DNA of 28,240 nucleotides from Verrucomicrobiota bacterium (GCA_038214755.1 JBBQRQ010000066.1:1-28240); one strand, 5' to 3'; numbered from the stretch's first letter, positions 3,564 through 28,212 are shown. Numbers and translations: made by a program. The notes: generated by a model not told the origin, from the sequence alone.

Positions 3564-5129
3564 TTACTGCACTAAATGGTCGGGCCTTAGAATCCAATTA
3601 GTTCCGTCATACATCCAACTATGGAAATTTATACCTTGCGGTTCACCGATTTTAGTAAATTTATAACCTTCAGCCAAAAAGCAACCTGCTATTGATGCAG
3701 GTTTTTCGCTGAGTTGCTTTTTAATGACATCGACTGCTTGAAAAATGTCTTTGCGATTTGGCCTTGTTTTTTTCCCAAATGCGGCCTTTAAAATTTCATG
3801 CGTCAAAACTCCAGAATCATGACCGACCATAGTAAAGCTTGGTCGCTCAAATCTGCCGTGAACATTTTCATGTTGAGACGATGGGTTACCTTGGGGAAAA
3901 AAGCCTATGATTCCTTTCAAATCTTCGCGTTGCGCATAACTTGAGATTGCCTTTTCGACACTACCATCTGAAAGCAGAATGATAGGATTCCAGTTGTTTG
4001 AAAAACTTTGACTGTAAAGACGAATTTGACGAACAAGGGGAATTCCCGTTTCCAACATACCCATAAAAACAACATAGTCCGGTTTAAACCGAGCAAAGGA
4101 TGTTACGTAGTCGGAAGAGCCACCAGGACCAATTGACCCGTCAGAAACAACTGTTACTTTTTTTAACACTGTTCTTTCTCTGAGAGCCGTCGCTAAATCT
4201 GAACTGTAGGTATTATTGCGGAGATCTCTTAGAATTGACAATGTAACGAAGTTTGTGCCTCCGTTATTTTTGGGATTTCCTACAATTTCGTTAGCGATCA
4301 ATTCCACTTGTTCGGTGTTTGACGGCACAAGTCGCAGAATCGGCTTTTGTCCGTCTTTGTTGTATTTTTCCAAGAGCTTTGACGCTGTCGCCATAGGCAA
4401 AATCAACACTGGTAACGAAGTGTCCCCGGATAGCCGCTTCTCGTTCATTATCTGAAGTGCGATTTCCGCTTTGGTGGAAGTGACAAATCCAATAATAGCT
4501 AATACGTCATTGTCGTTAATAAGTTTTCGTATTACGCCTTTGGTTTCTTCATTGTCGGTCGCTTCATCCTTCTCAAGAATCTTAATCCGCTCTTTCTTTT
4601 CATTGGGGAGTGGCAGTTCGAAATATCCAATGACATCGGGCTCAGATGGCTGCCAACTACCTAAGGAACAACATTTCCCATTCTCTTGCAAAACCATCTC
4701 GAAGCCTGCTTTAAATGACTTCCAATGTGGCGAGTCTTGTGAGTCCTTGGGGCCAATTAAGACTACCTTGTAATCATGTTTTCGACTAATCGAACCTATC
4801 CAAGCACTCAAGCTAGTTGACGTGTTGCTGGCCATTACGCCGAAAACACCTGCTCCCAGAATTACTACCCAGCCAGAATTCATCTGCTCTTTATCAAAAA
4901 ATTTCGTGTAACGGACCAAAAAAATTAGTGAAATGATCCATACCACTGGGAATAATATCCGAGCATACTTTTCCATCCATGGAACCCCTTCCCAAAGGCT
5001 ACTTGCATTGCCGAGTAGTGAAACCACAAAAGTAACGAACAGTAACCCCAGAAGCTTGAGAATGCTTAAAACGCTGATTTGCGGCTTTCTGGCTCCAGTC
5101 GAAGCAATAGGTTTTTCCTCTGGTTGCAT
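3564..5129 (-). CDS. Membrane-anchored periplasmic/solute-binding protein (LivJ/type I PBP-like fold) with ~3 N-terminal TM helices
   Basis: 521 aa; hydrophobic N-terminal ~105 aa, then DVLAIIGFVTS, ILPMATAS, ILRLVPSNTEQ, KPDYVVFMG, resembling Leu/Ile/Val-binding-type PBP motifs. Confidence 0.7.
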   Translation of the reverse strand: MQPEEKPIASTGARKPQISVLSILKLLGLLFVTFVVSLLGNASSLWEGVPWMEKYARILFPVVWIISLIFLVRYTKFFDKEQMNSGWVVILGAGVFGVMASNTSTSLSAWIGSISRKHDYKVVLIGPKDSQDSPHWKSFKAGFEMVLQENGKCCSLGSWQPSEPDVIGYFELPLPNEKKERIKILEKDEATDNEETKGVIRKLINDNDVLAIIGFVTSTKAEIALQIMNEKRLSGDTSLPVLILPMATASKLLEKYNKDGQKPILRLVPSNTEQVELIANEIVGNPKNNGGTNFVTLSILRDLRNNTYSSDLATALRERTVLKKVTVVSDGSIGPGGSSDYVTSFARFKPDYVVFMGMLETGIPLVRQIRLYSQSFSNNWNPIILLSDGSVEKAISSYAQREDLKGIIGFFPQGNPSSQHENVHGRFERPSFTMVGHDSGVLTHEILKAAFGKKTRPNRKDIFQAVDVIKKQLSEKPASIAGCFLAEGYKFTKIGEPQGINFHSWMYDGTNWILRPDHLVQ

Positions 5130-5158
5130 GGGGTAAGACGATAAAAGAGACGTAAAAA

Positions 5159-5320
5159 CTATTTCGCCTTTGTCAATCTGGTTGATTGGTTGCTCAACGT
5201 TTTAGACACGGCACCCATCCGAAATTTACGTTCGCTTGGATGCGAGTTTATCCCCGCCACTGATTCGGTGCCGACCCGTTCCCTGGTGCCAATCCAGCTT
5301 TTTTTATTGTTTGTTTTCAT
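5159..5320 (-). CDS. Small basic 53-aa peptide, possible radical SAM substrate/precursor
   Basis: ATG at 5320, 7 nt after the radical SAM stop; ends 29 nt before the next gene. MKTNNKKSWIGTRERVGTESVAGINSHPSERKFRMGAVSKTLSNQSTRLTKAK. Confidence 0.5.
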   Translation of the reverse strand: MKTNNKKSWIGTRERVGTESVAGINSHPSERKFRMGAVSKTLSNQSTRLTKAK

Positions 5321-5327
5321 ATTAGCG

Positions 5328-6839
5328 CTAAGTATTGACTGCAATAAATCCTATCTTTTTGCAAAGGATTTCCTCACACAATTCACGAGACCTAATTTTA
5401 AACCTTACGGCGTCAACAAATAATTCTCGTGAAACTGCCTTGGATATTTCTTCAAAAAAACAGGTTATTCCTTTGTGGCCACCTTCAAGTAAATCGTTCA
5501 ATTCATACGGATACAACGAAATCAGATTTTGGGCCAAATTAATCAGCATAAGACGGTTCTTATAAAATTCCGAATCCATCACAGGATTTACATGAAAGGG
5601 AAACAATTGGGGAAATTGCATCGCAAGCGGGTTATTAATCACGACCTCTGGACAATCGAACATCAATCGAATTCTAAAATCATTGTCGATAAACTCTACG
5701 CCTTCGCTTTTTTCTCGGCTAAGTTTTGTTTGTGGATATTTTGTTAAGATATGAAAGCTTAATTCTGCGCCTTCAAGCCTCAGTTTAGTTGCCCAGCGAA
5801 AAGTTTCCTCCAATTCCTCTTGGGGCCAAAAAGCGTCGATTATGAACGAGCACGTTGGTGTCACTTTCTTTGCGACGAGACTTCGGATTTTTTCCAAGCA
5901 GGCGGCTTGGCTTTTTGCAAAAAATTTACCCAATGCCTTTTTCTGAAGAGAGGTGACAGCGTCAATTCCGATATATGCAGAGTTACAACGTGCCCGCGAA
6001 AGCAAGGTTGGAATTTCTGCGTGAATATCTGGTAAGGATGCGTAACAGTTCCAAGTGGGCAAATCGCGTATTTCTGCGAGCCGAGTGCATATGTCCGCAG
6101 TCCGGTGACGATCATTTAGGAAATTATCGTCGACAACAAAAAGGTGTTTTGCTCCGACTTTACGAGCTATTTCGAAATCCGAGATAATAGTCTCCATCGG
6201 AAATTCAAGGCGTTGCGTCCAATGAGCGGGGCTGTAGCAAAAACTGCACTTATACTTGCATCCTCTAGCAGTCTCAAAATTAAGGACCTTTCGTTCATTC
6301 AAAATAAAATAATCAGAAAGATTGATCGTTGCATATGCATCCCATGGATGAGTTAGAATAGTTGGAGAACCATGATCGAATAAAAGACGAGCAGTGGGAT
6401 TTTTGCCTGAATGTAGCACACGAACTAGATCGGAAAATGTTCTTTCGCCTTGTCCCGAAATTACGAAATCTACGAACGGAAAATTTCGAAATAAATCTTC
6501 AGCAATTGCACCCAAGTGCGCTCCACCGAAAACTGTAATTACATGCGGATCTTTTTGTTTTATATTAGCCGCCAACCTTAAGCTTACGTGGGAGTTTATT
6601 CCCATTGATGTGAAACCAACGATCTTGGGCTTGCGGCAGGAAATTCGTGCAGTCGCATATTCATAGAAATCCTCTCCATCAGGCATCTCGCCCGAACATG
6701 AATCTAAGTTGAAATCCAGAACTTCTACTGAAACAGAGTCGTTCAACATCGATTGACTCAATCGCAAAAGGCCCAACGGAGGAGCTAAATCATCAAGGTC
6801 GAATCTGTGATTCGGTGGGTTAACTAATACCACATGCAT
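5328..6839 (-). CDS. Cobalamin-dependent (class B) radical SAM protein
   Basis: N-terminal B12-binding domain (VLVNPP...PPLGL...VGFTSM...FGGAH...GQGE) and ETARGCKYKCSFC (CxxxCxxC) with VDDNF. Confidence 0.92.
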   Translation of the reverse strand: MHVVLVNPPNHRFDLDDLAPPLGLLRLSQSMLNDSVSVEVLDFNLDSCSGEMPDGEDFYEYATARISCRKPKIVGFTSMGINSHVSLRLAANIKQKDPHVITVFGGAHLGAIAEDLFRNFPFVDFVISGQGERTFSDLVRVLHSGKNPTARLLFDHGSPTILTHPWDAYATINLSDYFILNERKVLNFETARGCKYKCSFCYSPAHWTQRLEFPMETIISDFEIARKVGAKHLFVVDDNFLNDRHRTADICTRLAEIRDLPTWNCYASLPDIHAEIPTLLSRARCNSAYIGIDAVTSLQKKALGKFFAKSQAACLEKIRSLVAKKVTPTCSFIIDAFWPQEELEETFRWATKLRLEGAELSFHILTKYPQTKLSREKSEGVEFIDNDFRIRLMFDCPEVVINNPLAMQFPQLFPFHVNPVMDSEFYKNRLMLINLAQNLISLYPYELNDLLEGGHKGITCFFEEISKAVSRELFVDAVRFKIRSRELCEEILCKKIGFIAVNT

Positions 6840-6931
6840 AATTCATCAAGTGTTCAACCGTAACCTTCAACCCATCATGCAGCAATCGTCTTTGAGGTAA
6901 ATTTTTTAAACTGCAATCTCATTAAACGCGT

Positions 6932-6959
6932 AAAGGGATTACTTTTGCAAGTAATCCCT
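6932..6959 (-). terminator. Strong hairpin after the small TM-peptide ORF (terminator-like)
   Basis: Perfect 11-bp stem AGGGATTACTT/AAGTAATCCCT (6934-6959) with a GCAA (GNRA) loop on the minus strand; only a short U-tract. Confidence 0.5.
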
Positions 6960-6970
6960 GAGGGTGCTAC

Positions 6971-7081
6971 TCAAAAATCCATCTGATACAAAAGATTTTT
7001 GATCAGAAAGACAATAAGCACTAATAATAGAACGCATACCGTAATTTTTTTGCGGTATTGTATCGGAATATCGCGAAACAT
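6971..7081 (-). CDS. 36-aa single-TM peptide, type I toxin-like
   Basis: Not in ORF track. TAAGGA-5nt-ATG; MFRDIPIQYRKKITVCVLLLVLIVFLIKNLLYQMDF*, a basic patch RKK followed by a hydrophobic helix. Confidence 0.65.
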   Translation of the reverse strand: MFRDIPIQYRKKITVCVLLLVLIVFLIKNLLYQMDF

Positions 7082-7174
7082 AGGATTCCTTAGTTAATTG
7101 TTGCAGCCGACAACCCATGTGCGAAGCACCCGGCCCTCTCGGCTGCAACCTAAACAATCCCAGATATCCGATAC
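7060..7174 (-). promoter_or_regulatory. 115-nt 5' hairpin sequestering the SD and start of the 36-aa ORF
   Basis: Nested stems on the minus strand: GTATCGGA-TATC/GATA-t-TCCGATAC; TGGGATTgTTTAG/CTAAGgAATCCTA (covers the SD); GTTGCAGCCGA/TCGGCTGCAAC; apical GTGC-TTC-GCAC. G-U wobbles favour the minus strand. Confidence 0.65.
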
Positions 7175-7180
7175 GCGCTC

Positions 7181-7209
7181 ATTATGGGTGATAGCAGTAA
7201 ATTTGTCAA
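7181..7209 (-). promoter_or_regulatory. Sigma70 promoter
   Basis: TTGACA (7209-7204)-N17-CATAAT (7186-7181); predicted +1 ~7174 coincides with the first base of the long hairpin. Confidence 0.75.
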
Positions 7210-7301
7210 CGCAAGAGATTATTTATTAAGTAGTTAGGTGATTCGCATAATTTGATACGCATTTACATTTGCAACCTCTTTCATGTGTCTTTTCGCCAAT
7301 G

Positions 7302-7332
7302 AAAAAGCCCCTCCGTCTTATCGGTGGGGCTT
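7302..7332 (-). terminator. Intrinsic terminator
   Basis: Minus strand AAGCCCC-ACCG-ataaga-CGGA-GGGGC-TTTTT, downstream of ardC. Confidence 0.7.
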
Positions 7333-7344
7333 GGATCTGTTTTT

Positions 7345-7496
7345 AATCCCAAGTTGACAGCCTTTCCTTCTTACTCGCCCTTACGGGCGACAATGTTCAC
7401 CCTAAATCTTGAAACATATGGAATACATCACTCGTAAAGTTGACCGAGTTTCAGTAAGCAATTAATGCTTGGGATTTCCAATAACGACTTGGTCAA
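7345..7496. ncRNA. Candidate structured RNA/ssDNA element between ardC and its terminator
   Basis: Closing stem AATCCCAAG/CTTGGGATT (7345-7353/7468-7476) encloses CTTAC/GTAAG and three hairpins, including TCGCCC-ttac-GGGCGA; no long ORF. Confidence 0.35.
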
Positions 7497-7560
7497 GAGC
7501 TTCGATTCTCAGAAGTTGTCCAGCCCAATAACTTTTACATCTACTTCTGTGGGGTGCCGT

Positions 7561-8736
7561 TTACCCGTTGCGTTGTTGTATCTCCTTCGATAGCAGGGCC
7601 ACGTTTTTGGAATGTAGCACAATAACTCCAAGAGCCATACACCTTACGCTGACATGGTTTCCGGGTTTGAATCCCGCTCGCTCAAGCCAGAGTCCCGTTA
7701 GCCGAATTTTCGGTTTGATTTTTCCCCGTGCAAAATCTCCGTCCTCCTCAATCTTTAACGAGCGAGGTTTCGGCTGACCATATTCCACGCTCTTTTGCAG
7801 AGTGTTGCTCATCGGCGCTTCTTTAAGGGTTGGGCACTCTCGTAATACAATCGCCTCCGCTTCCTTCGGTTGGTATTCCACCGGGCCTTCATCCTCTACC
7901 TTTACATCGAGGATGAAATCACAAGCTTTCTGTGCTTGTGCGGCGGCGTGAACGACAAGTTTCCGGTCGTCCTTCAATCGTTCCAGCCAGTTTTGGATGT
8001 AGCCAGCGGATTGATCGATGGTCATGTTCTCAATCTCGCAATGTCCACAGAGGAAGGCTGCTCCCATTTCGGCAACCAATTCCTCGCGGCTGTAGAGATC
8101 ACTGCCAAACCGATTCGGTTCGCTGATTTCTTTACGATTCAAGCGGGACAAATGCCCGGTTGAATGGGTTAGCTCATGGAAGAGCGTGTTGTAATACCCT
8201 TCCCTGGATTCAAACAGATTTGCCTCTGGCATACTGATTTCATCCAGAGATTGGTGATAACAAGCTCGTCCGCCCTTGTGTTTGATCACAGGCGGCTTTG
8301 GCATTCCTGCAACCACCTGTTCACATCTTTCAATCGGATGAAACTTGTTTTCACCCACTGGGAGTCCAGGCTCCTTGATTCCTTCACATTGCGCCACGTT
8401 GAACACGCGATGATAGCGAAGAAAGGAAATCCGTTTGGTTTCATCTTCACCTTCAACTTCTTCTTTGAGGATTTTCCAGAACACTACCGGGAACGAGTGT
8501 TCACCTTTTTTCACTGATCCTCCCAGCGTCTGCACCTGTTTAAAGGTGAGCCAGAAGGGAGAGACATAACTTGCCGCGTTGAGGAGAAACAGATTGATTC
8601 CCCGATACGTTTTCTTGCTGATTAAGTTTTGCGGCCATTGATTTCCACCTTTCCACGGCTGATGCCAGGGAACGGTGCCTGCTTCGAGCAACTGAATGAT
8701 TCTATCTGTCACGACTTGATATACGTCATTTTTCAC
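7561..8736 (-). CDS. ardC: ArdC-family antirestriction ssDNA-binding/zincin metalloprotease protein with C-terminal SymE-like domain
   Basis: N-terminal VYQVVTDRII..LEAGTVPWHQPW...YRGIN...WLTFKQ...GGSVKKGE; metalloprotease HELTH...RL.R...YSREELVAE; C-terminal PKIRLTGLWLERAGFKPGNHVSV. Confidence 0.88.
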   Translation of the reverse strand: MKNDVYQVVTDRIIQLLEAGTVPWHQPWKGGNQWPQNLISKKTYRGINLFLLNAASYVSPFWLTFKQVQTLGGSVKKGEHSFPVVFWKILKEEVEGEDETKRISFLRYHRVFNVAQCEGIKEPGLPVGENKFHPIERCEQVVAGMPKPPVIKHKGGRACYHQSLDEISMPEANLFESREGYYNTLFHELTHSTGHLSRLNRKEISEPNRFGSDLYSREELVAEMGAAFLCGHCEIENMTIDQSAGYIQNWLERLKDDRKLVVHAAAQAQKACDFILDVKVEDEGPVEYQPKEAEAIVLRECPTLKEAPMSNTLQKSVEYGQPKPRSLKIEEDGDFARGKIKPKIRLTGLWLERAGFKPGNHVSVRCMALGVIVLHSKNVALLSKEIQQRNG

Positions 8737-8863
8737 GTAACTCTCTTTCTCGCCGTCCCACCTGTTAGTGCAGGTTGCTTCTGGTTGGGTAACTCTCGCT
8801 GGAAGCGCGGGACGGCGCTTTGTTTTTCAGCGAGTTGTTTGCACACGGCCAAGGGAGCCATGA

Positions 8864-8897
8864 GAAAAAAGAAACCTCCCTCGGGATGAGAGAGGTT
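8864..8897 (-). terminator. Intrinsic terminator
   Basis: Minus strand AACCTCTCTC-atccc-GAGGGAGGTT followed by TCTTTTTT, just after the 95-aa gene. Confidence 0.7.
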
Positions 8898-8911
8898 GTT
8901 GAATGTGTTGG

Positions 8912-9199
8912 TCAGTAATCCTCTGGCAAAAGAACAGAGGTTGACGAACGATTTGCTTCGGTGATGACCCAAAACTTCAATCCCGTGCGGGAATGATAGA
9001 CCGACCAAAGACGAAACCCTTCTTTTAAGGAAAGCTCGTTCTCTCTTCGATCTTCTTCGCTGACCTCACCCCAATCACCGGCCTGGTGACGTTGGATTCC
9101 CATGAGAATATCCTCCTGGGTCAGTTGCGACTTCGCGTTCGCTGTCGTCACGATTTTACCAAGCCGAAACCTGGCGATGGGCATAACGTTCGCGCTCAC
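8912..9199 (-). CDS. Conserved plasmid/phage-associated hypothetical protein (RH..GDWG...WVITE...TSVLLPEDY type)
   Basis: 95 aa; motif pattern familiar from mobile-element proteins; 4-nt overlap with the upstream gene. Confidence 0.75.
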   Translation of the reverse strand: MSANVMPIARFRLGKIVTTANAKSQLTQEDILMGIQRHQAGDWGEVSEEDRRENELSLKEGFRLWSVYHSRTGLKFWVITEANRSSTSVLLPEDY

Positions 9200-9711
9200 G
9201 GCGCGCCTTTCCCGGTCGGTGGCTCCACGTCTGCGCTCGGATCGCTGTTCAATGAATCCATGACGAACTCACCTCGCGAGGTATCGAGCGGCATGGCATG
9301 AGCAAGCTCAATCGCTTTGTCTATTGATTGAGCTTCCACCTCCACTTGGTCACAAAGCTGCCAATACCGATTTACCACGAATTTCATTGCGGCCTCTCTG
9401 TGAGGATTTTCTTGCTCGCGGATACGTTGTAGCGCCTCTGCAATGTCCTGGCTGGTCAACTGCCAGCGTCTAATGGGCAATTTCGTAACGACCGTCCACT
9501 TGAAGCGCTGATACAGGTTCAAAGCCTGTTCGTCATCCCTCAAGTGGTCAGTTAACAATGCGAGCGCCAGTTGCGCCGGACCGCTCCCACAGTAGCCCCA
9601 CTCAAATCCAGTCGGACTATGGTTATACAAATCCAGGCGGGGATTGAGCGGAGCGCCATTGACCCTCACAATAGCTGCGTAACCTTCTCGTCTGCCTTCA
9701 TAGGTTTTCAT
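9196..9711 (-). CDS. DUF6166-like protein with C-terminal extension
   Basis: LNPRLDLYNHSPTGFEWGYCGSGPAQLALALL motif; 171 aa. Confidence 0.7.
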   Translation of the reverse strand: MKTYEGRREGYAAIVRVNGAPLNPRLDLYNHSPTGFEWGYCGSGPAQLALALLTDHLRDDEQALNLYQRFKWTVVTKLPIRRWQLTSQDIAEALQRIREQENPHREAAMKFVVNRYWQLCDQVEVEAQSIDKAIELAHAMPLDTSRGEFVMDSLNSDPSADVEPPTGKGAP

Positions 9712-9712
9712 G

Positions 9713-10024
9713 TTATCCTCCTTTCAGTTTGGGTTTGCGTTTCCTTTTCCCCTGGGCTTTGCGGTTAAGGATTTCCATTTCGGAATTGACGGAGATACGA
9801 ATGATCCGTGGTGACGGCTGGAAATGGACGGGCTTGTCAAAGCGCGTCGTGAATTCCCGCGCCGCTTGATTGATGAGCACGACCGCCGCGCATTCATTGA
9901 TCCGAATGACTCGCCCGAGCTTGTCACCCAGGCGGATGATGTCATTGACGTGAAGACGAAAGCGCTCTTGGCGTGGCCGCCAGATAAGGCCGAAAAGCTC
10001 GGCCTGTTCGCCATTGGTGTTCAT
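9713..10024 (-). CDS. Hypothetical protein (basic C-terminus)
   Basis: 103-aa ORF tightly packed (8-nt and 1-nt gaps) in the primase operon. Confidence 0.6.
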   Translation of the reverse strand: MNTNGEQAELFGLIWRPRQERFRLHVNDIIRLGDKLGRVIRINECAAVVLINQAAREFTTRFDKPVHFQPSPRIIRISVNSEMEILNRKAQGKRKRKPKLKGG

Positions 10025-10032
10025 AAGGCACC

Positions 10033-11043
10033 TCAGTTGAGCAGGCCATGCACTTCCTCTGCGGAGAGATGGTCCGGCTGGGTATCTGCTTTCTCAAAGG
10101 TAATCACCTTGACGAAGCAAAGCTTTGACAGGCGACACGCCATGTCTTCGCGTCCAGCCTGTCCCGCTTCGTCTTCATCAAGGACGATGACGATGTGGCT
10201 GTTTGCCTTCGTATGGTTGCGAATGATTTCCTCCTGCGCCGCTCCCATAGTGCTGCCCATGAGGGCAACCACTTTGCGGAAGCCGTGCTGATGAAGCTTC
10301 ATGCAACCAAAGAAGCCTTCGACGATGACCAATGGCATATCCTCCGGTTCTTTAATTGCGCGGTCAATGTTGTATAGCTCCTGCGACTTGCGGAATCCTG
10401 GAGGCAGTTTGTATTTGGGCGTATCCTCGGATGGTTCTCCGGGAAAACGCCCTGCATACGCGACGACTTCGCCGCCGACATTGTGAATGGGAATGGCGAT
10501 GAGTCCCGCCATCATTCCCTTGGCACAGTGTCCGATCCCGAAATCAATGATGGTTTCGGGAGTCAGGCCGCGTTCCGTAAGATACGGATGATTTCGTTCC
10601 AACTTATCGAGTCGGAATTTCAATGGCTTGTTTGGTGTATTTGCTTCCGGGGTTAGAGGGGGTTTGGCAGCCGGTTTCGATGGAGCGCTCGTTGGGGCTT
10701 CCTCGGAAGAATCTTCCTCCGAATTGGCTTTCATCTCTTCTCGATCCAAGCTGAACCACTCAATAGCTTTGAGTGCTGCGGCGTGGATACTTATTTTTTC
10801 CATCTCGGCAATGAAGTCCAAAACGTTCCCACCGTGCTTGCATTCTGAAAAACAGTTCCAGATATTTTTGGTCGTGCTTACCCTGAATTGAGTGGGATTA
10901 CTTCCTTTGTGAATGGGGCATGGCCCGGTGAGGCTCTCTCCATTCCTTTTGAACTGGTTAAGGAGGCTGTAGTGCGTAAGCACCTGTTCCATGGTGATGG
11001 CCGCTTTAACGGCCTTGAAGTCAACAAACGATTTATTTGGCAT
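10033..11043 (-). CDS. DnaG-like primase (CHC2 zinc finger + Toprim)
   Basis: CPIH...WNCFSECKHGGNVLDF zinc finger; YLTERG, AYAGR, PKY, VIVEGFF and DEDEAG Toprim motifs; AGGAG SD. Confidence 0.88.
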   Translation of the reverse strand: MPNKSFVDFKAVKAAITMEQVLTHYSLLNQFKRNGESLTGPCPIHKGSNPTQFRVSTTKNIWNCFSECKHGGNVLDFIAEMEKISIHAAALKAIEWFSLDREEMKANSEEDSSEEAPTSAPSKPAAKPPLTPEANTPNKPLKFRLDKLERNHPYLTERGLTPETIIDFGIGHCAKGMMAGLIAIPIHNVGGEVVAYAGRFPGEPSEDTPKYKLPPGFRKSQELYNIDRAIKEPEDMPLVIVEGFFGCMKLHQHGFRKVVALMGSTMGAAQEEIIRNHTKANSHIVIVLDEDEAGQAGREDMACRLSKLCFVKVITFEKADTQPDHLSAEEVHGLLN

Positions 11044-11165
11044 AGATACTCCTGTAGTTAAGTTTTCGAGGAACTACTGCGGCTCAAGAATTGAACCGCC
11101 TCTGACTGCAATCCTATCGCCCACGAAGGATTGAAGAAGACGGGGAATATTGCCGTTATGGTTAA
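11036..11165 (-). repeat. Structured leader repeat, copy 1 (upstream of primase)
   Basis: Shares long identical blocks with 12344-12471, e.g. GAGGAACTACTGCGGCTCAAGA and ATCCTATCGCCCACGAAGGATTGAAGAAGACGG. Confidence 0.9.
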
Positions 11166-11198
11166 GTGAAAAGGATGTGTTACCGATTTTCCTTGGCA

Positions 11199-11228
11199 CA
11201 AAAGAACCCCGCCGGTTACGACAGGGTT
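11199..11228 (-). terminator. Intrinsic terminator after the ligase gene
   Basis: Minus strand AACCCTGTCG-taac-CGGCGGGGTT-CTTTTG. Confidence 0.65.
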
Positions 11229-11268
11229 TGGATTTGAGTTCAACTGAGGGAGCCCACTTGAATGATTA

Positions 11269-12351
11269 TTATGACTCCTCTTCGGTATTCTTGAACTTGA
11301 GCTGGCGAGTGACGCATTCGGTCTGGAGAACATCAGCACGCACTCCGAGATAGACGGGTTGATAAAGACAACCACTTTCCTTGAAGGCGTAAAGGTATCG
11401 GATTTCCACTACTTGGCCGACCTTCGGAATGGCGCGGTTCGCTGGAATGGTGACATTGCCGGCCTTGACCAGATCCTTGTCGCTCCAGAGTTTGATTTCG
11501 ATGCTCCGCTTTCCGTTGATGGCGCCGACAATCGCAGAGAGGGTAGCACAGAACTTGTGTTTTACCTGGGTGCCAGCACTCGAGGGCCTGACGGCAACGT
11601 AAGGAGCATCGGTGCGTTTGAACACGATGCCCTCCTTGTTCTCCTGTCGAAGCGCGATGAGAAGTTCGTTCTTCTCGCGCTCAGTCCAAGCCGTTTCCGC
11701 GAGCAGGAGGTGAGACCGCTCAACACCAGCAAGGAGATTCCGAAGGGGCGTGGCGCGTGCATGGTATGGCAAAGGACGAAGATCCTCCCCATTACAGGTC
11801 AGAAGATCGAAGACATGTAATCGCTCACCCATGCTCTCGCCGTCCAGGATGAAGTCTCCCTTTAACGCCTGAGCCGCAACGACCATCGGTGAGGGCAATC
11901 CAACAAGCAATCCCTTGCGGTTAATGCCGTGGATGGCCGCTCCATGCTTCTCAAGGAGAATGCGTTTACCATCGAATTTTTCCTGGGCGCACCATTGGTC
12001 GTCCTCAATCAACCCATCGACTTCAGATTCTAGGACGGGGTTCAGGAGTTGGGGCAGGATGCCGGTGACGCGATTTTCTTTTTCCGTGTGCTGGTAAGGT
12101 GTGCCTGCTTCACCTTCCGTATAGCCCTTGGCTTTCTTTTCCGTGACGAGCTTGTTCCAGATTTGGGTGGCGGTCGCGAGGTCCACCGGCGTGTTGGTCT
12201 TTGTTCCGGTCTGAAGCGTGCTGCCTCTGCGGCCGTAGGAAAAGTTGACGACGTAGCCGCCGTCTCTGGGATCGATTGAGGCATGATATTCTTTGTCACT
12301 GGAACCTTGTTTGAAATATAGACTTGCGGTCTGCACTGATGTTTTTGGCAT
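11269..12351 (-). CDS. WGR-domain ATP-dependent DNA ligase-like protein
   Basis: Start placed at ATG 12351 behind AGGAG. WGR-like N-terminus (SDKEY...YGRRG...KKAKGY); nucleotidyltransferase motifs QEKFDGKR, LDGE, FDLL, EGIVFK; OB-like C-terminus (VVEIRY...LYQPVYLGVRAD). Confidence 0.85.
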   Translation of the reverse strand: MPKTSVQTASLYFKQGSSDKEYHASIDPRDGGYVVNFSYGRRGSTLQTGTKTNTPVDLATATQIWNKLVTEKKAKGYTEGEAGTPYQHTEKENRVTGILPQLLNPVLESEVDGLIEDDQWCAQEKFDGKRILLEKHGAAIHGINRKGLLVGLPSPMVVAAQALKGDFILDGESMGERLHVFDLLTCNGEDLRPLPYHARATPLRNLLAGVERSHLLLAETAWTEREKNELLIALRQENKEGIVFKRTDAPYVAVRPSSAGTQVKHKFCATLSAIVGAINGKRSIEIKLWSDKDLVKAGNVTIPANRAIPKVGQVVEIRYLYAFKESGCLYQPVYLGVRADVLQTECVTRQLKFKNTEEES

Positions 12352-13951: not shown

Positions 13952-14126
13952 TGTTTTTTCAGGAGTTCAATGACGCCATCCAGTTCAAGTTCTCCTCGCC
14001 GCTAATCGTTCAAACCGATGCTTGAGCACTTCGATTGGAAGACTACCCCATGCCAGTGCGAATGAAAATGCGACCTTGACATTTGTGCCTCTCAGGCACA
14101 AACATCTCTTTGTTGACAAAAAATTT

Positions 14127-14462
14127 ATGGCCACGAGTAAAACCACCGAGGATGTGCGGAAGGTAATGATCGAAACTGCCCAAGTGCAATTTGCTTCGTT
14201 GAACGCGGGTATTGTCTTCTGGAGTGGTTGGCTTGAGAGCGCCAGTAAATTCGCGCAGACACTTAACATCGAATTGACAAACTTGGGCAAAGAGGGGTTC
14301 GACACCGATGCGAGCCTGTCGAAGATCACCGACTCAAGCCGTGAATACCTGCGCAAGCTCACTGAATTGCCCGAAGCCGCGACCGCTCGCTTTAAGAAGG
14401 ACGCGGCTGGGGTCGGCGCGCGACGGGCCGAGCGCACACGATCCGCTCGCGCCAAGGCGTGA
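14127..14462 (+). CDS. Hypothetical helical protein (111 aa)
   Basis: ATG 14127; amphipathic helical sequence with basic tail; convergent with the prenyl synthase (13-nt gap). Confidence 0.6.
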   Translation: MATSKTTEDVRKVMIETAQVQFASLNAGIVFWSGWLESASKFAQTLNIELTNLGKEGFDTDASLSKITDSSREYLRKLTELPEAATARFKKDAAGVGARRAERTRSARAKA

Positions 14463-14475
14463 AGAGGAATCGCAG

Positions 14476-15426
14476 CTAACTTTTTGACAGCGCGCGTGTG
14501 TGCTCTACGAGCGCCAGAAGCTTCTGGGGATCCGTCGCGTTCGCTATCGCCTCCCGTCGCGCGTCCGCGGCGAGGCCATCCAGATAATCTTCCGCCTCCG
14601 GCAAAACCTTCGCCATAGCTCTCATCAGACGATTGTAATTCTTTGGCCCAGCCTGACGAAAAAGAGCGCCCACTTTCGGATCTCGAACCGCCAATGCGGC
14701 TGGCAACGTCAGAATACCATCCAAAACATCCTTTTCACCTCCGCCCCCCAATGCCACTGCTCCGCGCACGTCCCCGACATCATCACATCCGTGATAAACC
14801 AAGCCGAGCAGCAAGCCAAACTTCCGTAACCGGTCGTCCCTCGCCCCGAGCCGGGCACAGATTTCAAACATCGAACCTGTATCCTCCCCCGCAATCATCC
14901 GCCAATCCTCGACCCCCAAGGGATGCCGACGTAACCGCCATTGTGTGCATTCGGCCACACCGAGCCGTTGCATCAACTCAGCTAGTAGTCGCACGCTGTA
15001 AGTATCTTTTTGCACGAGGTCGAAACCACCCGCAGTCAAGTAACCGGAAGCCATCAAGGCGGGAAGAAACCCGAAGCGGCAGTGCAGAGTGAGCCGTCCG
15101 CGTCGAGAGCGCGAAGCGTCGAGAATATCATCCACAATCAAGGAAACATTGTGGAAGATCTCCAAGGCGGCCGTGGAGCGGAGCAGTGTCTCGGACACCG
15201 GCGCGACGGACGTAGCATGATGGCACGCGAAAATCGTGAGCGGACGGAAATACTTCGGCCGGCTCAACAATTGCCAGCGCAACAGAGCTTCCACTTCGGG
15301 GTTTTGTCTGTCCAGCCACTTGGTAATGAAATTCTTCAGGCGTTCCATGTCATCGGCTACACCGATACGCTGGGGCAACTCGGTTACAGGGACAGTTCCG
15401 ATTAACATTTCTGGAGTGTCAAGCAT
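14476..15426 (-). CDS. Divergent polyprenyl synthetase (trans-isoprenyl diphosphate synthase fold)
   Basis: K.FRP, EIFHNVSLIVDDILD...RRG (first Asp-rich motif), DDVGD (second), KDVLDGILTLP. Confidence 0.85.
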   Translation of the reverse strand: MLDTPEMLIGTVPVTELPQRIGVADDMERLKNFITKWLDRQNPEVEALLRWQLLSRPKYFRPLTIFACHHATSVAPVSETLLRSTAALEIFHNVSLIVDDILDASRSRRGRLTLHCRFGFLPALMASGYLTAGGFDLVQKDTYSVRLLAELMQRLGVAECTQWRLRRHPLGVEDWRMIAGEDTGSMFEICARLGARDDRLRKFGLLLGLVYHGCDDVGDVRGAVALGGGGEKDVLDGILTLPAALAVRDPKVGALFRQAGPKNYNRLMRAMAKVLPEAEDYLDGLAADARREAIANATDPQKLLALVEHTRALSKS

Positions 15427-27345: not shown

Positions 27346-27532
27346 TTGCTATCCGCGAACCTGGAGTGCCGAGGTGTAAAGCACAGTTTCGCGAAAGAGC
27401 GATTCATCGCTGCCGCATTGAACAATTTCGATTGCTCCTTGAAATAGTAGAACTGTTATCGAATCAAGACTCGCGCGGTTCGCGAAAAAGCCCTACAAAG
27501 TTGCTGCGGTTGTGTGAATTAACGCGACCGCA
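27346..27532 (+). promoter_or_regulatory. CRISPR leader
   Basis: Between the cas2 stop and first repeat; contains GCGAACC and GGTTCGC blocks typical of type I-C leaders. Confidence 0.7.
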
Positions 27533-28212
27533 GTCGCTCCGTGATTCGTCACGGAGCGCGGATTGAAACAGTCTTGATATGAATTTTTAATTTTGTTTTT
27601 CATGTCGCTCCGTGATTCGTCACGGAGCGCGGATTGAAACCCCGACAATCAGGGAACGGACGTCCCCCTTTTTTAGTCGCTCCGTGATTCGTCACGGAGC
27701 GCGGATTGAAACTCCGACACATCACAGTCCAATTCATCGGCTAATGTCGCTCCGTGATTCGTCACGGAGCGCGGATTGAAACTCAACTGGTCACCGTTCT
27801 CAACAATCATCAACAAGTCGCTCCGTGATTCGTCACGGAGCGCGGATTGAAACACGCTTTTTTAAATCTTTGTGTCTCCGTTCGAATGTCGCTCCGTGAT
27901 TCGTCACGGAGCGCGGATTGAAACTCGTGCTTGTTGTCTCAGGATCGGTGACATGAGTGTCGCTCCGTGATTCGTCACGGAGCGCGGATTGAAACGGCTG
28001 ACTGGAGAAATCATAACTATAATTCTCTCGTCGCTCCGTGATTCGTCACGGAGCGCGGATTGAAACTGAAGATAACAGTGCGTAGTGCGAAAAAACAGGC
28101 GAGTCGCTCCGTGATTCGTCACGGAGCGCGGATTGAAACATGTTGTCCTCTTTTGCGTCGGCGAGTGCTCGGGCGTGGCGGCCGGTATTGTAACGGAGCG
28201 CGGCTTGGAAAC
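27533..28212 (+). CRISPR. CRISPR array: 37-bp repeat GTCGCTCCGTGATTCGTCACGGAGCGCGGATTGAAAC, 9 identical + 1 degenerate terminal repeat, 9 spacers (33-36 bp)
   Basis: Repeat starts at 27533, 27604, 27676, 27746, 27817, 27888, 27959, 28030, 28103; degenerate copy 28175-28212; 3' ATTGAAAC handle gives + orientation. Confidence 0.98.

Follow-up and report, generated by a model that had tools for sequence, protein, structure and literature searches.

Type I toxin mRNAs, as catalogued in T1TAdb, measure 150–400 nt and encode peptides of 20–60 aa, with an anti-Shine-Dalgarno (anti-SD) sequence upstream and a stem-loop at the 3′ end (10.1101/2021.04.14.439843). The toxins are described as hydrophobic, single-helix peptides of fewer than 60 aa, and most of those that act at the membrane have a cationic C-terminus (PMC8309996). 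Two routes of activation are described for these messages, one of which is activation at the 5′ end (PMC13000454). According to a 2025 paper, type I modules had previously been found only in Proteobacteria, Firmicutes and Tenericutes, a restriction that it blames on homology-biased searches (PMC12390103). Among the papers listed by our literature search on type I modules in Verrucomicrobia or Verrucomicrobiota, none was on the topic to judge by title or opening of the abstract (subscription papers, supplements and the T1TAdb tables could hold related predictions), and the search on type I toxins in ICEs returned work on Pseudomonas only.

Here we describe an element in a 28,240-nt stretch of DNA from an uncultured Verrucomicrobiota bacterium of sediment (GCA_038214755.1, JBBQRQ010000066.1:1-28240; hereafter the window), which an earlier note had read as a hidden type I toxin-antitoxin-like locus. 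Its features are as follows.

7181–7209 (−): P1, a sigma-70-type promoter, TTGACA-17-CATAAT, AT-rich upstream, with a predicted +1 at 7174
7060–7174 (−): HP1, the 5′ hairpin given by folding, 115 nt and 44 bp, covering the SD and the first codons
7150–7162 (−): anti-SD arm, duplex −13.1 kcal/mol, whose removal in silico frees the SD
6939–7157 (−): overlapping frame of 72 aa (59 aa from an ATG at 7118), spanning the whole ORF in a mok-like position
7087–7092 (−): SD-like TAAGGA, 5 nt before the ATG, anti-SD duplex −4.8 kcal/mol
6971–7081 (−): ORF of 36 aa with a basic N-terminus and one hydrophobic helix (GRAVY 1.04, net charge +3, one Cys)
7036–7058 (either strand): HP2, a small intra-ORF hairpin whose loop is A-rich; read on the + strand, the 5′ hairpin of a candidate antisense RNA
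6999–7028 (+): P2, a candidate convergent antisense promoter, TTGATC-18-AATAAT, weak at 9/12, with a predicted +1 near 7035
6963–7024 (−): HP3, a 62-nt hairpin over hydrophobic codons and the stop codon (z −4.2, −18.7 kcal/mol)
6934–6959 (−): HP4, an 11-bp, GCAA-capped 3′ hairpin with a poor U-tail

The tisB/IstR-1 and zorO/OrzO loci combine a long, structured 5′ UTR that sequesters the ribosome-binding site (RBS) with a small hydrophobic peptide, as does the element (PMC5397157, PMC13000454, PMC7708055), and like tisB and zorO in these accounts the element is predicted to be activated by the removal of 5′ bases. In zorO the 5′ cut is described as opening the upstream region while leaving the RBS structure unchanged, whereas in the element it is predicted to open the SD. 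The element also differs from both loci in having neither sequence likeness to them nor an adjacent antitoxin gene of long complementarity. With aapA/IsoA of Helicobacter it shares a fully structured mRNA of about 250 nt and a single-helix peptide of the 30–36-aa size class (PMC5416894, PMC6733600), together with at least two anti-SDs and a candidate promoter, located within the ORF, for an antisense RNA over the 5′ UTR. However, aapA is described as locked by a long-distance 5′–3′ helix and activated by 3′ trimming (PMC5416894), which is inert in silico for the element, and AapA1 reportedly needs a C-terminal cationic pair that the element's peptide lacks. Like hok/Sok and ldr/Rdl, the element lies by the leading region of a conjugative element, flmAB being placed in the F leading region (PMC9849209), and overlaps a longer frame, a leader ORF being recorded in T1TAdb. 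Unlike them it has no Pfam match to their families (E ≤0.1) and no 3′ fold-back, and its overlapping frame is open in 5–16% of null models and so not significant, for which reason we rejected mok-like coupling.

The element has several features of the class: a predicted mRNA of 245 nt, a predicted 36-aa peptide, a single hydrophobic helix and an RBS predicted to be sequestered by an anti-SD. The toxin-mRNA anatomy that the earlier note had proposed is present and goes far beyond chance, but the end-to-end pairing that it had thought possible, which would be of the hok/aapA kind, is not supported. On sequence, we put it at about an even chance that a new type I toxin-antitoxin module has its toxin gene in the segment 7209–6930. 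This is the best reading: the size, the anti-SD upstream, the lone hydrophobic helix, the hairpin at the 3′ end and the location on a mobile element are all there; against it stand a C-terminus that is not cationic, a moderate SD lock, the weak P2 and the poor terminator at HP4.

Promoter, fold and peptide of the element

Our analysis of the sequence indicates that the element is a real, sharply bounded, unannotated small-gene unit. The promoter that the earlier note had picked out, TTGACA-N17-CATAAT, is present and scores 11/12. P1 is the only site above 9/12 among the five promoter sites in 5000–9000. Throughout the 5.1-Mb genome 15 sites, P1 included, score 11/12 or more, and another of these sits ahead of a tRNA gene. 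The transcript predicted from P1 through the 3′ hairpin (7174–6930; 245 nt, both ends predicted from sequence) folds with −94.9 kcal/mol and a z of −8.9, and the slightly longer segment 7180–6920 with a z of −7.7. The 5′ and 3′ halves fold separately (z −6.2 and −6.6) while the flanks do not (z +1.1 and +0.95); folding therefore begins and ends at the predicted transcript ends. The structure also depends on codon choice: none of 200 synonymous shuffles (−80.1 ± 3.4 kcal/mol) folds as well as the real codons do. Both strands of the element fold well, the opposite one with a z of −7.8.

The 115-nt hairpin 7174–7060 was confirmed, and its first base coincides with the conventional +1. HP1 has a z of −5.7 (0/200 shuffles; −6.2 in a second computation) and includes a perfect 11-bp stem (7149–7139/7110–7100). 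The end-to-end helix that had been suggested between GCGCGTA (7178–7172) and TACGCGT (6932–6926) found no support: four of its seven 5′ bases (7178–7175) precede the predicted +1, and in a transcript starting at 7175 bases 7174–7170 are paired with 7060–7064 at a probability of 1.0. A pseudoknot was rejected as well, with just one A/U-rich, 6-bp loop match.

The predicted 36-aa ORF is in place at 7081–6971, and we think it probable that it is translated into a real peptide, be it a toxin, a benign small protein or a leader. Sixteen of the 36 codons specify Ile, Leu or Val and these are clustered at 13–27; the maximum 17-residue hydropathy is 2.96, and a single-sequence structure model gives a helix at residues 8–35 (pLDDT 84). 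The positive charge is N-terminal, and the C-terminus holds one Lys and one Asp. Of 20,000 dinucleotide shuffles of the transcript, 7 produced an ATG ORF that is led by an SD and includes a TM-like stretch. The genome has 41 small hydrophobic ATG ORFs, seven of them with an SD; of these seven, only the ORF described here has a promoter of at least 10/12, and its fold z of −7.8 compares with −1.9 for the next. Similarly, 180 other loci (1.39 Mb) contained 19 such ORFs, the sole structured one being the element's own copy (L234).

As judged from its sequence, the peptide fits none of the named type I families in Pfam, NCBIfam and Rfam. Pfam returned VP7 only (E 0.095) and no match to Hok-type families at E ≤0.1, NCBIfam returned no match, and PHROGs one uncharacterised family (E 0.037); Rfam had nothing at gathering score for the element, the best weak match being a viral UTR (20/100 bits). 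The nearest atlas clusters, at 0.75–0.79, are generic membrane proteins of 31–40 aa and serve as a lead only. We rejected, on weak evidence from protein-set searches at near and longer lengths, the idea that the ORF is the N-terminal fragment of a longer membrane protein. Under the SECIS rule the element's UGA would lie 22 nt before a G-led loop, and the frame stays open for 31 codons past that UGA; selenocysteine read-through nevertheless fails because selA is absent from the 97% complete genome. A tRNA-Sec search gave one putative match, at 48 bits against a cut-off of 47.

Predicted occlusion of the ribosome-binding site and predicted activation

The earlier note had described a hairpin arm that pairs over TAAGGA and into the ATG. 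We found that TAAGGA is indeed paired, by way of a G-U pair and a G.G mismatch, but that only the A of the ATG is paired; its UG lies in an 8-nt bulge of HP1. In the predicted transcript it takes 6.6 kcal/mol to open the SD and 13.5 kcal/mol to open the whole RBS. Among 154 SD-bearing host genes, whose start codons were roughly called, 17.5% (SD) and 28% (RBS) are as hard to open, and SD occlusion by itself is moderate, not exceptional.

What the lock responds to in silico is the 5′ end of the message. Cutting that end to 7156, which removes about 18 nt, lowered the cost from 6.6 to 1.1 kcal/mol for the SD and from 13.5 to 6.5 kcal/mol for the RBS. The 5′–3′ lock of the hok/aapA type, relieved by 3′ trimming, was not found: the costs stay at 6.6 (SD) and 13.5 kcal/mol (RBS) with any 3′ end from 7050 to 6915. 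Since the 5′ cut opens the SD and 3′ trimming is inert, the model fits activation of the tisB/zorO type and not of the hok/aapA type. An RNA thermometer was rejected, the opening cost being 8.2 kcal/mol at 10°C and still 5.9 kcal/mol at 45°C.

From these calculations the following sequence of events can be proposed. The anti-SD arm would be transcribed first, so that the SD would be captured as it emerges and the primary mRNA would be silent; in the nascent RNA the SD opening cost is 0.4 kcal/mol with the end at 7086 and 6.7 kcal/mol with the end at 7082. The message would be activated when its first ~18 nt are lost or displaced, as in 5′-processed tisB and zorO, and not by 3′ trimming. The predicted 245-nt RNA would lock its own RBS, and the peptide, when made, would damage the membrane; through post-segregational killing the module might stabilise the island or its radical SAM cargo, or else it might take part in abortive defence.

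The host genes show no SD enrichment (59 vs 53 of 1,109), so that the SD may matter little there, and Verrucomicrobiales are reported to lack SDs (PMC10798248). The element poses the question of how SD-based locks operate in SD-less hosts. At less than 300 bp it lends itself to an assay in E. coli; should it prove toxic, both its peptide family and its leader switch would be new. A bolder and less likely idea is that the element represents the first type I family from an island of the PVC superphylum (probably Verrucomicrobiota), with twin, mutually inverted promoters for the toxin and antitoxin RNAs, a 5′ lock whose anti-SD recurs in the 3′ hairpin as a second lock, and an SD-led toxin in a largely SD-less host.

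The 3′ hairpin, a candidate antisense RNA and competing readings

The 11-bp, GCAA-capped hairpin was found where the earlier note had placed it, at 6959–6934, yet its description as terminator-like is weak: three U's follow a 10-bp stem, and a terminator scan listed six sites of which HP4 is not one. Its arms repeat the anti-SD/SD helix at 8 of 10 bases, and the folding model makes the 5′ arm a second anti-SD. Between that arm and the SD region the pairing is worth −9.8 kcal/mol, a value reached in 1.4% of 5,000 shuffles; compared over the whole 5′ region, however, the likeness of both HP4 arms is not significant (18% of 2,000 shuffles). In a 5′-cut message trimmed to 6947, the HP4 5′ arm lifts the SD cost from 1.2 to 5.3 kcal/mol. 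If HP4 were trimmed in the activated message, its 5′ arm could then re-cover the SD and act as a fail-safe.

As antitoxin, the module would have a cis-antisense RNA that starts from P2 near 7035 and runs over the first codons, the SD and the leader. P2 by its score is at chance level, the region 5000–9000 having five sites of this level against 5.7 expected. In an alignment of 45 columns, P2 agrees with P1 plus 9 nt at 28, a likeness seen in 1.3% of 3,000 shuffles with the 9 nt, in 7.4% for the part upstream of +1 alone, and in 2 of 426 background windows. Its predicted start is one base ahead of a 9-bp hairpin, the loop of which complements the A-rich loop of the mRNA. No terminator was found for the + strand antisense RNA, and elsewhere in the assembly there is no complement of more than 17 nt that could act in trans. 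The P2 transcript is, on sequence grounds, the best antitoxin candidate, though a weak one.

The alternative raised by the earlier note was a leader peptide controlling the downstream radical SAM operon. As a ribosome-mediated Ile/Val/Leu attenuator, the element would use HP3 as the 1:2 protector, a 2:3 helix over the stop codon as the antiterminator and HP4 as the terminator, and a stalled ribosome would allow transcription from P1 to continue into the radical SAM and binding-protein genes; we consider this reading unlikely. The geometry allows such a design, but two tests passed by the attenuator-like leaders of the host itself go against it. Classical ilv/leu attenuators, as described in PMC1262725, share with the element a short ORF rich in Ile, Leu and Val, a hairpin over these codons and a hairpin after the stop; the 16 regulatory codons are in place, and when a ribosome stall is modelled the HP4 5′ arm is paired at 0.64–0.81 for codons 17–32 and at 0.22–0.49 for codons 33–37. 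The downstream protein matches Peripla_BP_6 below cut-off, and the stretch from HP4 to the radical SAM start contains no promoter on the minus strand that scores 9/12 or more. Unlike the classical leaders, however, the element has no U-tract (three U's vs six in the host controls), its antiterminator is at chance (a 2:3 gain of −5.1 kcal/mol that 33% of 1,000 shuffles equal), its leader start is occluded by a 93-nt 5′ UTR, and the downstream genes are not for amino-acid biosynthesis. Moreover, the HP4 arm is paired at 0.66 even without a ribosome, and stalls at codons 12–16 give 0.43. The host itself carries a 26-codon Ile/Val leader before ilvB and a 22-codon Leu leader before a leuA-like gene (in G000, C1 upstream of 34993 (+) and C38 upstream of 28435 (+); both without an SD). 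The antiterminators of these leaders reach −21.4 and −15.9 kcal/mol, with six-U tails and a clean switch, and vanish once the ribosome passes codon 16–17; that of the element reaches −8.3 to −13.3 kcal/mol with several G-U pairs. Under these models, the attenuator reading is weaker than for the host's two genuine-looking attenuators. It is further disfavoured by a related gene pair (L155, 34% identity) that has no such element upstream; this leader test rests on n = 1, L155 being the one close family member among the loci listed. Some read-through from P1 into the radical SAM gene is likely under any model, given that HP4 is a weak stop and that no other promoter of at least 9/12 lies there.

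All the positive evidence concerns a translationally locked membrane-peptide gene, none of it concerns toxicity, and no convincing antisense unit was found; with the generic membrane proteins in the nearest atlas clusters as a lead, the ORF could encode a non-toxic small membrane protein, for example an accessory or regulator of the binding protein, switched on by 5′ processing or an RNA-binding factor and with no antitoxin. We give this only a small chance: other SD-led small membrane ORFs, in the genome and in the 180 other loci, lack such a leader, and the L155 gene pair has no peptide gene upstream. Smaller still is the chance that the element is a structured non-coding RNA, or a decayed palindromic element, with an incidental ORF. 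Folding does run through the ORF and depends on codon choice, both strands fold, and unrelated hairpin repeats occupy the same slot in relatives, but the rarity of an SD-led TM-like ORF in shuffled transcripts, the lack of an Rfam family at gathering score and the lack of a second genome copy all speak against it. Finally, the element may recall an Frpo/ssi-like single-stranded hairpin of the leading region, in which P1 and P2 would be arms that rebuild a promoter for early expression or priming. Frpo is described as rebuilding its −35 and −10 boxes in a stem-loop and as switching off on conversion (PMC9849209). In the element, 6995–7213 folds with DNA parameters on both strands (z −4.7 and −6.2) and forms an outer stem of ~6 kcal/mol that takes in the −10 box and some of the −35 box, and the element, like Frpo, is near a leading-region gene, here ardC. 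In contrast to Frpo, P1 is already close to consensus in duplex DNA and is thus not confined to single strands; any two convergent sigma-70 promoters would be partial inverted repeats; the element is missing from the same slot of 12 related islands and is found past the terminator that closes the leading operon; and the ORF and HP4 are left unexplained. We regard this last reading as the most improbable of all.

Island context and the search for relatives

The host genome (5.1 Mb) is 97% complete. It has 29 PSD1 matches and a VPDSG-CTERM domain, neither of which occurs in 14 control genomes, and these point to a host of the PVC superphylum, probably Verrucomicrobiota; the assembly includes no 16S gene. 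The window is contig C66 of this genome and contains a conjugative island with a Replic_Relax relaxase, a VirD4-like coupling protein, a primase, a ligase and ArdC. Beside the island lie a putative cas3/5/7/4/1/2-like operon and a CRISPR array. Over 5000–9000 the window is identical to the public contig, which is probably the source data and so gives no independent confirmation. Of the sequencing runs listed, one, probably the source, contains this DNA and none is an RNA run, which says nothing about expression. The element's immediate neighbours are as follows.

7298–7332 (−): a U-tailed hairpin closing the ardC-radC operon, upstream of P1
3564–6839 (−): the downstream cargo, with a B12-binding radical SAM gene (6839–5328) and a membrane-anchored, Peripla_BP_6-like binding protein (5129–3564)

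The ardC operon ends in a radC remnant, followed by the U-tailed hairpin. About 4 kb of cargo, consisting of the element, the B12 radical SAM gene and the gene for the membrane-anchored binding protein, lie between this operon and a backbone gene (3316–2564) and have 41–42% GC, compared with 52.7% for the genome. The radical SAM gene falls into no assigned family; its best NCBIfam matches are RiPP methyltransferases, far under cut-off. Twelve of 20 fetched regions from related islands share the downstream backbone gene, 0.9–10.6 kb after ardC, and the content of the slot between ardC and this gene differs among the 12; the element is absent from the slot in all of them. These comparisons of sequence indicate that the conjugative island carries the element as cargo, in a slot whose content varies.

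Among the at least 159 loci listed, L155 is the sole close member of the radical SAM family. It carries the radical SAM and binding-protein pair (the binding proteins are 26% alike, E 2e-8), and the region upstream contains neither the element nor the peptide gene. At E ≤1e-35, the radical SAM protein was not found in 400 genomes of the phylum.

No homologue of the element was found. Searches of its own genome, by BLAST and nhmmer and with an RNA model (R1), gave no second copy; DNA searches gave no homologue in 100 relatives and, in 399 genomes of the order, only 18 matches of 19–59 nt (E 0.005–0.048), 14 of which were fetched and had no SD-led hydrophobic ORF and no R1 match. R1, a model built from one sequence, the element itself, and thus of limited reach, was negative in 149 relatives, 39 ArdC-positive genomes, 34 loci, 20 regions and 46 loci. 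With the peptide as query, 300 genomes of the class gave one match (E 0.046) with two internal stops, and a set of 1.84 billion protein representatives and one of 5.8 billion proteins, at near and longer lengths, returned the peptide itself only. Plasmid and phage searches found no homologue, and one strict pattern had no match in metagenomes. Four patterns gave 40, 81, 3 and 29 matches in viral contigs, which we judged to be chance from 120 of the first 121 plus the other 32. Given the low power of short hydrophobic queries and of a one-sequence model, these negatives show rarity and not absence; with no homologue, neither covariation nor ORF conservation can be drawn on. Of what the earlier note had proposed as checks, then, RNA folding came out in its favour (z −8.9) and the search for homologues of peptide or structure did not. 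Working addiction modules usually spread, and the singleton status counts against the toxin reading. As a singleton the element carries moderate weight at present; as a structure-defined candidate without sequence kin in a PVC-type genome, it puts the homology-bias idea directly to the test.

Several further observations concern the island and related loci. ArdC (8736–7561, −) is C-terminally fused to a SymE-like domain (PF08845, 31 bits against a cut-off of 29), and only the tail of radC (~7530–7470) is left behind it. A SymE-like piece is fused or adjacent in the relatives L006, L009, L015–L017, L021, L026 and L028 as well; our literature search on ArdC and SymE together returned nothing relevant. 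Four genes of the island's leading region (9199–12351) have strong SDs (−6.9 to −10.9 kcal/mol), and strong folding occurs inside the primase-like ORF, at about 10290–10635 (−), where three segments of 115 nt have a z of −3.4 to −4.5. The relaxase and the coupling protein are separated by a polyprenyl synthetase gene (14476–15426, −) and an unassigned 146-aa ORF (14022–14462, +).

Between the radical SAM and binding-protein genes, the window (5344–5159, −) and L155 (5463–5645, +) each have an ORF of ~60 aa, and the two share VGTE and HP motifs; on sequence, this ORF may be the peptide substrate of the radical SAM enzyme. Long hairpin repeats (z to −10), related to one another, occur directly after radC or between cargo genes in the islands L325, L330 and L316 and may be REP-like slot boundaries. 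An integron attC site was rejected for the element, the core sites as read from the sequence being in reversed order. A CRISPR link was likewise dropped, as none of 22 spacers matches the element. The CRISPR arrays at 27500–28200 and on another contig of the genome (C7, ~84200–85200) share one repeat, and one pair of spacers is identical at 21 of 23 positions. In an Omnitrophota single-cell genome (L231), three SD-led membrane paralogues of 27–28 aa are found at 2873, 3010 and 5184 (+); these peptides end in FDFYWW-like sequences, the first two have an 11/12 promoter match upstream, and no strong 5′ structure is seen.
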